Shown one piece after another: positions 36,987-38,986 of a DNA stretch of 64,000 nt; the stretch's first letter is position 1; every line of letters starts with the position of its first letter. The notes under the pieces are model-generated. The model worked only from the letters and a program-made list of their open reading frames with translations. It ran no database searches and was not told where the DNA came from. The DNA comes from Anaerovoracaceae bacterium (lineage in GTDB: Bacteria; Bacillota; Clostridia; Peptostreptococcales; Anaerovoracaceae). The DNA is taken from positions 919,434 to 983,433 of the forward strand of contig JBMNMU010000001.1 in assembly GCA_050953505.1 (NCBI GenBank), read 5' to 3'. A program made the translations under genes and the position numbers.

Positions 36987-37544
36987 ATGGAGGATAATCG
37001 TATTGTTGACCTGTATTGGCAGCGCAATGAGGACGCAATCGCGGAAACTGCGTCAAAATACGGTAAGTATCTGCACAGTATCGCATATCAAATCCTCTCC
37101 AATACACAGGACACCGAGGAATGCGTCAACGATACATATACCGGTGCATGGAATACGATACCTCCCCACCGTCCTTCCATCCTATCAACCTTTTTAGGAA
37201 AGATCACACGCCGTATCTCTATTGACTTATGGAGAAGACACAGCGCCGAAAAGCGCGGCGGCGGAGAGATGAGCTTGGTCATGGACGAGCTGGAAGACTG
37301 TATATCTGCTCCGTCGGATGTGGAAACGGTCATCGAGCAGCAGGAAATGGTTCGGATAATCGGGGAATTTCTCGATGCGCTCCCTGTAACGGAACGTCGG
37401 GTGTTTCTCAGACGGTATTGGTATATGGATTCCATTGCCGATATTGCATTGGATTTCGATTTTACCGAGAGCAAAACCGCTTCCATGCTGCACCGTATTC
37501 GTTCCAAACTGCGTGAGAAATTGGAAAGTGAGGATTATCTATGA
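36987..37544 (+). CDS. ECF-type (group 4-like) sigma-70 family RNA polymerase sigma factor
   Basis: 185 aa containing only region 2 (DLYWQRNEDAI...YLHSIAYQIL) and region 4 (LPVTERRVFLRRYWYMDSIADIA...SMLHRIRSKLR). ATGA overlap with the downstream gene. Confidence 0.85.
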   Translation: MEDNRIVDLYWQRNEDAIAETASKYGKYLHSIAYQILSNTQDTEECVNDTYTGAWNTIPPHRPSILSTFLGKITRRISIDLWRRHSAEKRGGGEMSLVMDELEDCISAPSDVETVIEQQEMVRIIGEFLDALPVTERRVFLRRYWYMDSIADIALDFDFTESKTASMLHRIRSKLREKLESEDYL

Positions 37545-38986
37545 AGAAAGAACAAATCATTGATATTATTGGGGAAGCTCCCGATCATTATGTGAAAGAC
37601 GCAAAAGAATATAAGAAAAAGCGGCGAATCCCCCGATGGTCAAAGTGGATGGGCAGCATTGCGGCAGTGCTGGCAATCGCACTGCTTGTGACCAACATGC
37701 CGGGGATTCCGCTGACCGTCTCCGCCCATGCGATCAGCGAGGCATCGGAATCCCGTAAGATGGAACGACCGAAAAACGGAAGCGATTCCGAAATGTTTGA
37801 TGAATGGAGGACACAGCTTGACGCTCACAAGGAACTGGTGGAAACAGCGCAGACACCGATTGCCGGGTTCGCAGGGCTTGTTTCGGACGATGTCCTTTCC
37901 GGCGTAGACGGGACTAACCGGGTTTGGTCCCCCATCAATGCTTATATCGCGCTCGCTATGACCGCAGAACTGACAGACGGTGAAACGCAGGCGCAGATTC
38001 TGGACGTCCTCGGAGTATCCGATACAGCAGAACTGCGGAACCGCGTCAGTGCTGTATGGGAAGAAATCTATGAGGACAACGGAAAGGAAATCAGCGTTTT
38101 GGCTAACTCCCTTTGGCTTGATAAGGATGTTGAATATGTACAGGAAAAGATGGATTCCATCGCATATGACTATTATGCGTCGGTGTATCAGGGAGATCTC
38201 GGAAGCGAAAAGACCAACAAAGCGATGACAAACTGGATGCGGAATCAGACCGGCGGACTTCTCAAAGACCGCACACTGAAATGTCAGCTGGAACCGAAAG
38301 ACCAGGTACTCGCTATTGCCTCCACAATATACTTCCAATCCCAATGGGCAGATAAATTCAATGCTTCCGATAACACGCATGGGATGTTCCATGCTGTCAC
38401 CGGCGATGAAGAAGCTACCTTCATGAACAAGAAGGAATACCATATGAACTACTATTGGGGCGAAGATTTCGGTGCTGTTCAAATGTTCCTTGAAAACGGT
38501 TCTTATATGTGGTTTATCCTTCCGGACAAAGGAAAGACAGTCGATGATGTACTGGCAAGCGATGAGTACATGGATATGATCACGCAGCTTTCAAATAACT
38601 CTGAAGAAGAATCCAATCGCAAATGGATGAAGGTAAATCTCTCTGTTCCTCAGTTTGATGTTTCGGCAAGCACCGACTTAAAAGAAGCGCTTCAAGCGGC
38701 AGGACTTACAAATCTTTTCGAACTGTACGGAAATGACTTTTCCCCATCCATTATTAAAGCAAATGAAAACGATGATCCCGTCTATCTTGACAGCATTAAT
38801 CAGGATACCCGTGTGAAGATCGACGAAAAAGGTGTCGTAGCGGCAAGTTATATTGAACTGAATTTCGGCTCAGGAGCTGCCATGCCGCCGGATGAGGTCA
38901 TAGATTTTGTCCTTGACAGGCCGTTTGTGTTTGCCATCACAAAGAGCCAGATTCCGCTGTTTATGGGAACTGTGAATACTCCATAA
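37541..38986 (+). CDS. Membrane-anchored serpin-family protein (short cytoplasmic N-terminus, one TM, extracytoplasmic serpin domain)
   Basis: TM segment WMGSIAAVLAIALLV. Serpin N-terminal signature VWSPINAYIALAMTAELTDGETQAQILDVLG. Hinge and reactive-centre-loop region DEKGVVAASYIELNFGSGAAMPP followed by FVLDRPFVFAI. Confidence 0.8.
   Translation: MKKEQIIDIIGEAPDHYVKDAKEYKKKRRIPRWSKWMGSIAAVLAIALLVTNMPGIPLTVSAHAISEASESRKMERPKNGSDSEMFDEWRTQLDAHKELVETAQTPIAGFAGLVSDDVLSGVDGTNRVWSPINAYIALAMTAELTDGETQAQILDVLGVSDTAELRNRVSAVWEEIYEDNGKEISVLANSLWLDKDVEYVQEKMDSIAYDYYASVYQGDLGSEKTNKAMTNWMRNQTGGLLKDRTLKCQLEPKDQVLAIASTIYFQSQWADKFNASDNTHGMFHAVTGDEEATFMNKKEYHMNYYWGEDFGAVQMFLENGSYMWFILPDKGKTVDDVLASDEYMDMITQLSNNSEEESNRKWMKVNLSVPQFDVSASTDLKEALQAAGLTNLFELYGNDFSPSIIKANENDDPVYLDSINQDTRVKIDEKGVVAASYIELNFGSGAAMPPDEVIDFVLDRPFVFAITKSQIPLFMGTVNTP

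Follow-up and report, generated by a model that had tools for sequence, protein, structure and literature searches.

The 64,000-nucleotide window analysed here (contig JBMNMU010000001.1, positions 919,434–983,433, from an Anaerovoracaceae bacterium) contains a two-gene operon in which a sigma factor of the extracytoplasmic function (ECF) type with 185 residues (36987–37544, + strand) is translationally coupled to a 481-residue serpin protein (37541–38986, + strand). The second protein consists of a cytoplasmic tail, a hydrophobic segment, a juxtamembrane segment and a serpin domain. This sigma–serpin module is conserved in more than 70 species of gut and digester Clostridia. The arrangement suggests a form of ECF sigma/anti-sigma signalling in which the sensor/effector domain is new and the short tail module unannotated.

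The sigma–serpin operon and its conservation

The sigma factor matches the Pfam families Sigma70_r2 (E = 1.8e-9 over residues 24–86), Sigma70_r4_2 (E = 7e-7 over residues 124–175) and Sigma70_ECF, as well as NCBIfam TIGR02937 (62.3 bits against a cutoff of 42.9). Having only the sigma2 and sigma4 domains, within a length of about 170–200 residues, it belongs to the ECF sigma factors (group 4) of the sigma-70 family. At the junction of the two genes (37541–37544, + strand) the sequence reads ATGA, in which the stop codon TGA of the sigma gene and the ATG of the serpin gene overlap (TAT CTA TGA AGA; context TATCTATGAAGAAA), and a Shine–Dalgarno-like GGAGG/GAGG stands ahead of both start codons. 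A scan of the operon for sigma-70 promoters and terminators found nothing above chance, and no terminator was detected 3′ of the serpin gene. An antisense open reading frame (ORF; 37640–38482, − strand, 280 residues) was considered as a gene and rejected, being most likely a shadow of the conserved serpin gene; antisense ORFs of this kind cluster over ten loci solely owing to serpin conservation.

More than 2000 relatives of the serpin protein are present in the database at E ≤ 1e-5, and among the best 120 listed more than 100 are full-length (mostly 465–500 residues), with identities of 59–98%. Immediately 5′ of each of four divergent homologs, all of them from long contigs, lies an ECF sigma gene, in neighbourhoods that are otherwise unrelated. 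A species-level scan, using one genome per bacterial species, gave 80 serpin loci at 44–85% identity, all of them in metagenome-assembled genomes, mostly from animal gut, and from taxa comprising Oscillospiraceae, Acutalibacteraceae, Lachnospiraceae, Faecousia, Agathobacter and Acetatifactor. Five of the 80 are uninformative, as their serpin gene lies at the edge of its contig. A sigma gene lies directly 5′ of the serpin gene and on the same strand in 73 of the remaining 75 loci, and the two genes overlap in 71 of these 73, in 67 of them by one of four lengths (11 nt in 48 loci, 4 nt in seven, 8 nt in seven and 14 nt in five), a gap being present in just two. Every comparative locus is a metagenome assembly, and some of the sigma and partner start codons used here were inferred. 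The two exceptions (loci L086 and L088) lack a sigma gene 5′, the N-terminal tail and the family promoter, and their serpins start instead with a lipoprotein signal peptide (...LLSFASCG and ...FSMTACG).

When the neighbourhoods of 55 loci were clustered across subgroups, the sigma factor was found in 51 and the serpin in all 55, the next cluster being the antisense shadow ORF of the serpin. Since nothing but the sigma factor and the serpin is conserved nearby, the operon appears to be a self-contained two-gene module. The original prediction, made from the letters of the window alone, had described the 185-residue sigma factor, the ATGA overlap and the tail, hydrophobic segment and serpin of the 481-residue protein correctly in every detail, as judged from the ORFs and Pfam; the phylogenomic search for sigma–serpin pairs that it called for recovered the pairing in 73 of 75 informative loci, and its concern that the pairing might be unique to this genome is rejected by that conservation.

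Two further features of the comparative loci were noted. Genes for BlaR1-type Peptidase_M56 proteins lie near the operon in eight of the 55 long loci (seven of them in subgroup d; L023 is one of the eight) and in L001 (10702–11449); they are too sporadic to belong to the module, yet they encode a signalling protease. Locus L009 (1038–8237) holds three tandem sigma and partner modules, namely a sigma factor with a 198-residue partner and, as a gene of its own, a lipoprotein-type serpin interrupted by an in-frame stop, a sigma factor with a serpin partner, and a sigma factor with a DUF4367 partner.

A candidate ECF-type promoter, TGCAAT (−35-like) and CGAG (−10-like) separated by 16 nt, is located at 36909–36934 (+ strand), approximately 52 nt 5′ of the sigma start codon, and is the sole exact copy of TGCAAT-N16-CGAG within the 64-kb window. 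The −35-like element [AG]TG[TC]AA[GCT] is present at positions −125 to −35 in 62 of 70 sigma–serpin loci (shuffle mean 6.8, maximum 16), and the strict bipartite pattern TG[CT]AA[TGAC]-N16-CG[AGT][GTA] in 32 of the 70 (0.38 expected). The counts are based on the −35-like element because the −10-like variants (CGAG, TCTA, CGGT and TGGT) are specific to sigma subgroups, as expected if every sigma factor reads its own promoter. The family −35-like element is absent 5′ of the sigma-less serpins of L086 and L088. This type of motif, TG[TC]AA[GCT]-N15-17-CGxx, has an ECF-like geometry and position and departs from the classic AAC/CGT consensus. Judged from the promoter motif, autoregulation of the operon by its own sigma factor is likely.

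Architecture of the serpin protein

The cytoplasmic tail (residues 1–36; 37541–37648, + strand) is proposed to be a sigma-binding, anti-sigma-like module. Within the subgroup of the window it carries the highly conserved motif MKKEQIxDxIGEAPDxYVKDAKE followed by the basic stretch KKKRRIPRWSKW. Four subgroups show four flavours of the tail (MKKEQIVDMIGEAPDxYVKDAKE, MNEKVAKALGYVDEKYV, MKRKHVLEVLDKIDDRYIKEAEK and MKHEEILTALEEISDKHIKEAEK), each of which leads into a basic stretch and the hydrophobic segment. The tail is present in all 73 sigma-linked serpins and in neither of the two sigma-less ones.

The same architecture recurs outside the serpin loci proper. Close sigma paralogs in the same loci are followed by partners that have a tail of about 25 residues, a basic stretch and a hydrophobic segment, joined to unrelated ectodomains; more distant sigma factors in these loci pair with classical zf-HC2 anti-sigma partners, which serve as a positive control (zf-HC2 was detected in L043). 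A metagenome scan seeded with non-serpin sigma paralogs returned at least 595 stretches, from which 80 loci were kept; of the 86 sigma genes in these, 82 are followed by a +1 ORF, and the partners so obtained comprise 75 distinct proteins of about 150–690 residues. A hidden Markov model of the tail, trained on the earlier loci only, matched 50 of the 75 new partners at ≥8 bits compared with four of 538 control ORFs, and all four of the latter are partners with a mis-assigned start.

Mirror-tree analysis, in which the distance matrix of the sigma factor is correlated with those of segments of the partner, gave r = 0.908 for the tail (residues 1–36) and 0.811 for the serpin core. With the serpin core controlled, the partial r with the sigma factor (partial Mantel p ~0.001) is 0.72 for the tail, 0.25 for the transmembrane (TM)/c-region and 0.24 for the linker, shared history being not fully removed from this statistic. 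By the same type of measure, published pairs of ECF sigma and class I anti-sigma factors reach 0.82, with negative controls at 0.5–0.6 (PMC7406223).

Class I anti-sigma domains are about 100 residues long (101 ± 33), with a four-helix N-terminal fold and often an H-x3-C-x2-C motif (PMC7406223). The tail, at about 34–36 residues and with no Cys/His motif, does not resemble the zf-HC2, RskA or RseA types and therefore cannot be a class I domain. Anti-sigma domains of less than 50 residues are treated as possible class II members, in which two helices wrap sigma2 and sigma4 (PMC7406223), and the length of the tail and the single-pass topology of the serpin protein are compatible with this class (CnrY type). 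The tail probably binds the sigma factor. Of the anti-sigma-like N-terminus originally proposed, the link to the sigma factor thus stands (73 of 73 against none of two, the paralog partners and the co-divergence), whereas the segment is only about 34 residues long and belongs to no known anti-sigma family.

Ectodomains of the partners in the wider sigma family include DUF4367, FG-GAP repeats, serpins of other branches (L097, 572 residues, and L125) and an LprI lysozyme inhibitor; most partner ectodomains, and the tail itself, receive no name from Pfam or NCBIfam. The LprI domain (Pfam PF07007, residues 285–374, E = 1e-13) lies behind the tail and hydrophobic segment in the partner of a paralogous sigma factor in L121 (3055–4722). 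The presence of another hostile-enzyme inhibitor in the anti-sigma position strengthens an analogy with RsiV and lysozyme. In L175 and L177 (4746–6695, corresponding to window positions 35731–37681) homology to the window breaks off within the hydrophobic segment, at 37681: the recombinase, sigma factor and partner tail are kept (as an 82-residue ORF in L177), and the serpin is replaced by a 1276-residue protein, a 114-residue protein and a Peptidase_S26 (signal peptidase I) gene.

The hydrophobic segment (residues 37–51; 37649–37693, + strand), identified by hydropathy and in an AlphaFold2 (AF2) model, could be a TM helix or the h-region of a signal peptide. The stretch W36–V50 (WMGSIAAVLAIALLV) is preceded by KKKRRIPRWSK, which places the N-terminus in the cytoplasm according to the positive-inside rule. 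Kyte–Doolittle maxima range from 1.75 to 2.9 across the family, and AF2 predicts a helix at residues 35–51 with low confidence. The hydrophobic stretch comprises 13–15 residues in the subgroup of the window and about 19 in subgroup c. The sequence LVGC in the hydrophobic segment of many paralog partners was considered as a lipobox and discarded, as hydrophobic residues run on past the Cys in the manner of a TM helix.

On the 3′ side of the hydrophobic segment, a Pro/Gly helix breaker is followed by [ST]-A-x-A/[VI]-[SA], which reads SAHA/IS in the window. The conserved A-x-A (A62-H63-A64; 37724–37732, + strand) is a candidate signal-peptidase-I-type site-1 cleavage site between A64 and I65. Among 76 members, Ala occupies position −3 in 75 and position −1 in 63, and the −3/−1 rule is obeyed in 66. 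The AF2 model has a β-strand at residues 63–66 (predicted local distance difference test score, pLDDT, ~79) and then a long helix at residues 83–119. An N-in single pass with a signal-peptidase-type site just outside the membrane is the topology of RsiV and RsiP, anti-sigma factors in which signal peptidase is the site-1 protease (PMC4183432, PMC8844934); site-2 proteases cut anti-sigma factors and liberated signal peptides alike (PMC5381017). Together with these precedents, the conservation of A-x-A permits two readings, a regulated cleavage as in a sensor or a constitutive one as in an extended signal peptide. The ectodomain may consequently be released, and of the earlier description of the protein as membrane-anchored the N-in hydrophobic segment is upheld and the anchoring itself is left uncertain.

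The serpin domain (residues 123–481; 37907–38983, + strand) matches Pfam PF00079 with E = 3e-58. Among solved structures, tengpin comes closest (E = 2e-26), with conserpin, PAI-1 and alpha-1-antitrypsin next in order. The AF2 model has a predicted TM-score (pTM) of 0.77 and core pLDDT values of 80–93, and Foldseek aligns it to the solved serpins listed with a probability of 1.00 and TM-scores of 0.74–0.88, the best matches being latent or cleaved serpins (latent tengpin 2pef with a TM-score of 0.86 at ~22% identity, cleaved CBG and cleaved PAI-1).

The reactive-centre loop (38825–38896, + strand) extends from the hinge P17–P9, E429–Y437 (EKGVVAASY), to the tip G443–E452 (GSGAAMPPDE). E429 (P17), G431 (P15), V432 (P14), A434 (P12), A435 (P11), Y437 (P9), P449 and P450 are invariant in 78 of 78 members, and the family consensus at the tip is P/N-G-A-G-[S/A]-A-x-P-P. 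Compared with the inhibitory hinge consensus ExGTEAAAA at P17–P9 (PMC8233489), the hinge is of the inhibitory type, deviating by Val for Thr at P14, which is uncharged, and by the solvent-facing Tyr at P9. The inward even positions P14–P4 are V, A, S, I, L and F, small or hydrophobic residues suited to insertion into sheet A. AF2 places P15–P4 as an inserted strand and leaves the tip (443–454) flexible (pLDDT <50). The loop is insertion-competent in this model, which indicates compatibility with insertion and not proof of a metastable native state. P1 is G445 by counting from the hinge or A446 by anchoring on Pro-Pro; either way the residues around it are tiny, which fits elastase-type targets. 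From the sequence and the model the serpin is quite probably inhibitory. The plausible inhibitory hinge and small residues near P1 noted at the outset (EKGVVAAS, residues 429–436, and FGSGAAMPP, residues 442–450) are thus borne out by the invariance of the hinge and the tiny residues at the tip.

Mobile units around the operon

The operon is carried by the second of two small recombinase units near a gene for a RumA/TrmA-type rRNA (uracil-5) methyltransferase (31022–32166, + strand), assigned from its translation, that serves as the integration target. The last codons of this rumA gene are split by copy 1 of a group II intron (32167–34067, identified by Rfam); the spliced frame would end ...HVETVVLM/SRISGGK and a stop (HVETVVLMSRISGGK). 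An ORF at 31022–32194 that shares a 25-nt repeat was taken for a possible third recombinase and dismissed, its translation being a RumA-type methyltransferase. Mobile unit 1 (~1.7 kb; 34094–35753, + strand) contains the recombinase gene rec1 (34205–35125, + strand, 306 residues), an 81-residue membrane ORF as cargo (35327–35572, + strand) and a 3′ end of the shared type.

Mobile unit 2 (~3.5 kb; 35714–39199, + strand) consists of a 5′ region, a serine recombinase gene, the promoter, the sigma and serpin genes and a rumA-3′-like end. Its recombinase, rec2 (35895–36815, + strand, 306 residues), has Resolvase and Recombinase domains (PF00239, E = 1.3e-29; PF07508, E = 8e-23) and no zinc-ribbon/coiled-coil region, is 77% identical to rec1 over the first 300 nt, and is also found 5′ of the sigma gene in L174–L177. 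The conserved 3′ end of unit 2 (~175 nt; 39021–39197, + strand), which includes the rumA-like CACGTTGAGACGGTCGTATTGAT, repeats that of unit 1 (35578–35753), the direct repeats D3 and D4 being 95% and 87% identical. Intron copy 2 (39201–41101, + strand; Rfam RF02003 and RF00029) lies in rumA-like sequence at the right end of the unit, and its reverse transcriptase ORF is broken by a stop at 40780. The two intron copies are 99% identical, including 51 nt on the 5′ side, and occupy the same position in rumA-3′-like sequence.

Unit 2 is 96.2% identical over 3491 nt to sequence in Proteiniclasticum sp. QWL-01 (CP120965.1). It is 98% identical to L092 and L093, from two other samples, as far as 39197–39199, where the flanks begin to differ: L092 runs on into another rumA-type 3′ end, and the one that follows in L093 has no intron. 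A rumA-type gene (TRAM and tRNA_U5-meth_tr) lies directly 5′ of the recombinase and sigma genes in L175 and L177. Defined ends and a rumA-type target, shared by the window, L092, L093, L175 and L177, are those of a serine-recombinase unit. By sequence comparison, unit 2 is mobile between bacterial families, and excision and integration activity is predicted.

The guanine–cytosine (GC) content of the operon is 0.476, compared with 0.38 in the rest of the window and 0.40–0.42 in the recombinase genes, which fits a foreign origin. The host of the window is Anaerovoracaceae-like, its Tgt clustering at ≥90% identity with Anaerovorax and Sinanaerobacter. In native Oscillospiraceae loci the operon has a GC content of 0.51, close to that of its flanks (0.45–0.50); that the operon composition is native-like there and high here supports a foreign origin together with carriage on a mini-element. 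The original prediction of a GC-rich, probably acquired operon carried as cargo of a mini-element is in agreement with these values and with the unit at the 3′ end of rumA. No recombinase homolog was found in the 91 loci L001–L091, 86 of which have the sigma–serpin pair. Mobilization therefore appears to be a recent add-on, and an origin of the pairing as a by-product of the mobile element is rejected on the basis of these 91 loci.

Units of 1.7–3.5 kb, each with a recombinase of about 306 residues devoid of the zinc-ribbon/coiled-coil region, one cargo and the shared ~175-nt 3′ end, form tandem arrays in the window and in L174 (3184–12558); the array in Proteiniclasticum also holds genes for a WapI-domain protein, a DUF3658 protein and a short-chain dehydrogenase, along with further recombinases. 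In this respect the small recombinase units behave like a cassette array. Between intron copy 2 and a Fur-family regulator gene (41443–41946) are three tandem copies of a 30-nt sequence (GCGWGTGGTCGATTTAGATGTCAG...; 41235–41324). Elsewhere in the window (21929–23581) is a gene for a 550-residue large serine recombinase, whose 90%-identity cluster has 1092 members, many from Clostridia, that are named 'DUF4368 domain-containing protein' or site-specific recombinase, with one TnpW-family member; it suggests another, larger mobile element in the window.

Proposed mechanism and related systems

In the mechanism that we favour, the tail would sequester the sigma factor and the serpin would be sensor and output at once, so that protease attack would lead through site-1 and site-2 proteolysis to re-expression of the operon by the sigma factor; we would give this reading as a whole slightly less than an even chance. 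The sigma factor would be made in 1:1 coupling with a single-pass partner oriented N-in and C-out, and the tail of about 34 residues, a functional anti-sigma domain of class II (CnrY) size, would keep it at the membrane. The ectodomain, an inhibitory-type serpin, would offer its Gly/Ala/Ser loop as bait to elastase-like serine proteases. Upon attack on this loop the serpin would spring to its relaxed form or be dragged into a covalent complex, and the sprung serpin would expose the juxtamembrane segment to a site-1 cut, for which the best candidate is the A-x-A site and signal peptidase I (compare RsiV and RsiP). A site-2 protease would then cut the membrane stub and the tail would be degraded, and the freed sigma factor would read TGCAAT-N16-CGAG and replenish both proteins in a demand-driven resynthesis. 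Protease-triggered proteolytic release of the sigma factor, proposed by analogy, is a tentative part of this mechanism. Somewhat more doubtful is the irreversible stressed-to-relaxed spring of the serpin as the trigger of release, by which every inhibitor molecule spent would call for its own replacement, within a large unannotated family of short-tail sigma/effector-ectodomain modules of gut and digester Clostridia.

Several observations weigh against the sensor mechanism. The tail shows no match to a known anti-sigma domain in Pfam (E ≤ 1) or NCBIfam and no H-x3-C-x2-C motif, and residues 1–60 of the partner are modelled with pLDDT <50. The co-divergence of tail and sigma factor could alternatively arise from the two recombining as a unit onto serpin cores. 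Ten of the 76 members have V, E or I at position −1, which is unsuitable for signal peptidase I, and no conserved site-2 protease gene or other partner was found beside the operon in the 55 long loci compared. The AF2 model is in the relaxed state, with which a latency-prone or non-inhibitory serpin is also compatible. Across many hosts, the tip of the loop is better conserved than the complete serpin (mean identity of 75% versus 63.5%), suggesting one conserved target, possibly an endogenous protease, over diverse host proteases. Finally, a feedback loop that is purely positive would require some means of shutting it off, of which there is no sign.

The same N-terminal features could instead belong to an extended signal peptide, with residues 1–64 forming an n-region that contains a sigma-binding motif, an h-region and the A-x-A c-region. 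Cleavage would then be constitutive and the serpin secreted, the leftover peptide and the sigma factor would be cleared by site-2 protease, and sigma release would be tied to export of the partner and not to protease sensing. The short hydrophobic stretch of 13–15 residues followed by P/G and A-x-A, with 66 of 76 members obeying the −3/−1 rule, is what such a peptide would look like; the sigma-less relatives are ordinary lipoproteins that retain the juxtamembrane segment in the mature protein; site-2 proteases are able to cut liberated signal peptides (PMC5381017); N-terminal transport peptides are present on most prokaryotic serpins according to a 2021 phylogeny (PMC8233489); and several partner ectodomains, such as the serpin and the LprI lysozyme inhibitor, are effector-like. 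We nevertheless consider this account unlikely, as the −1 residue is unacceptable to signal peptidase I in ten of 76 members, constitutive cleavage would leave the positive loop unchecked, the cleavage-site residues are modelled as a strand docked on the serpin body (pLDDT ~79), where constitutive cleavage would be hindered, and the hydrophobic segment of about 19 residues in subgroup c is of anchor length. Less probable again is a static titration, in which the tail binds the sigma factor and is never removed by a signal, a tethered serpin guards the surface and the operon is held at a fixed set-point. Translational coupling with its 1:1 synthesis, the restriction of the operon to two genes and the lack of a dedicated protease or signalling partner conserved nearby are in keeping with it. 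A 1:1 pair of sigma and anti-sigma factors without release would, however, stay essentially silent, the single-pass ECF anti-sigma factors that have been studied are typically inactivated by proteolysis or conformational change (PMC8999054, PMC10202637), and the conservation of A-x-A and the juxtamembrane segment would be left unexplained.

It is also conceivable that the sigma factor and the tail do not interact, the sigma factor merely transcribing the operon and the tail serving membrane targeting, localization or the choice of secretion pathway, with the association reflecting shared operon ancestry. A recognized anti-sigma domain is indeed absent in Pfam and NCBIfam, the N-terminus is modelled at low confidence, and extended signal-peptide regions have other roles in other bacterial proteins. 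Against this stand the perfect co-occurrence (73 of 73 versus none of two), a motif that heads many unrelated ectodomains and always lies beside a sigma factor of the same family, the co-divergence of the tail with the sigma factor when the adjacent TM segment and linker do not co-diverge, and the persistence of sigma factor, tail and TM segment together in L175 and L177, where the serpin is replaced; the proposal is accordingly very unlikely. The least probable explanation is that the serpin lacks inhibitory activity and serves as a sensor of a ligand-binding or chaperone-like kind, comparable to ovalbumin, the hormone-binding globulins or HSP47. P14 Val and P9 Tyr depart from the consensus ExGTEAAAA (PMC8233489), the loop tip is unusually conserved and the AF2 model is relaxed, all of which could be read in this way. 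On the other side, P17 Glu, P15 Gly and P12–P11 Ala-Ala are invariant, the even inward positions are small or hydrophobic and P14 is uncharged, the closest solved relatives (tengpin, PAI-1 and alpha-1-antitrypsin) are inhibitory, and inhibition of elastase-type proteases at a stoichiometry close to 1 is known for other serpins of gut Clostridia (PMC5127057).

The proposed mechanism has parallels in several known systems. In RsiV–sigmaV (Bacillus subtilis and Clostridioides difficile) and RsiP–sigmaP (Bacillus thuringiensis), as in the arrangement proposed for the sigma–serpin pair, an ECF sigma factor is co-transcribed with a single-pass anti-sigma factor. The cytoplasmic anti-sigma domain of RsiV and RsiP is of full size. 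The serpin partner shares their topology and has its conserved A-x-A just outside the membrane, whereas its tail of about 34 residues belongs to no known family. The RsiV ectodomain binds lysozyme directly, after which the site-1 signal peptidase and then a site-2 protease act (PMC4183432, PMC5014341, PMC8844934). RsiV holds lysozyme non-covalently, unlike serpins, which are cleaved and trap their target covalently, and, in a further difference from RsiV and RsiP, the sole evident output of the sigma–serpin module is the sensor itself. A very short cytoplasmic segment on a single-pass protein is likewise found in the class II pair CnrY–CnrH, CnrY being compared here by length and topology only. 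CnrY comes from Proteobacteria and acts together with CnrX, which is the sensor. The SigI–RsgI systems of cellulolytic clostridia comprise many paralogous pairs with a common N-terminal anti-sigma module and varied extracellular sensors. They differ in having a sigmaI-C domain instead of sigma4, another anti-sigma N-terminal domain and carbohydrate-binding sensors in place of enzyme inhibitors; sigmaI-like ECF sigma factors are mentioned in PMC7826278.

Among serpins, tengpin (Thermoanaerobacter tengcongensis) resembles the window protein in being bacterial and in having an N-terminal extension ahead of the serpin core. The N-terminal region of tengpin has been reported to stabilize the native state, a lead for the role of residues 65–122 here; we know of no sigma partner described for tengpin. 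The serpin operon of Bifidobacterium breve responds to proteases. Its sensor is a histidine kinase and its serpin a separate secreted product, with no sigma factor involved; expression of the serpin is autoregulated (Alvarez-Martin et al. 2012, cited in PMC8201313), control being exerted by a two-component system. Human neutrophil elastase and proteinase 3 are among the targets of the siropins of Eubacterium siraeum, which inhibit them at a stoichiometry close to 1 (PMC5127057). Siropins, miropin and the Bifidobacterium longum serpin are gut serpins directed against elastase-type host proteases, with which the small P1-region residues of the window serpin fit; they are described as stand-alone inhibitors, and no sigma factor, tail or membrane segment appears in those papers. 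No description of the sigma–serpin module was found in a literature search that included the ECF reclassification paper, the serpin phylogeny, the 'gut serpinome' review and the siropin paper and left most subscription journals outside its range, in line with the original prediction, which had been aware of none.

The physiological role of most prokaryotic serpins has been called 'enigmatic' (2021 superfamily phylogeny; PMC8233489). Here, an entire clade of serpins, with members in at least 80 species-level genomes and over 2000 proteins in the database, is wired firmly to a transcription factor. Should the tail prove to be an anti-sigma module, the serpin would be the first covalent protease trap to form the extracytoplasmic domain of a sigma regulator, gut anaerobes would have a direct and testable path by which exposure to proteases reaches gene expression, and a new short module would be found to head hundreds of unannotated membrane proteins of Clostridia. 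Taken together with the LprI paralog, the serpin would then suggest 'inhibitor as receptor' as a general design, in parallel with RsiV and lysozyme. As a compact, self-contained unit that has already moved between families, the module is also an attractive protease-responsive genetic switch. It thus suggests a hitherto undescribed link of protease attack to gene expression, of relevance to the biology of gut proteases, where bacterial serpins are being explored.

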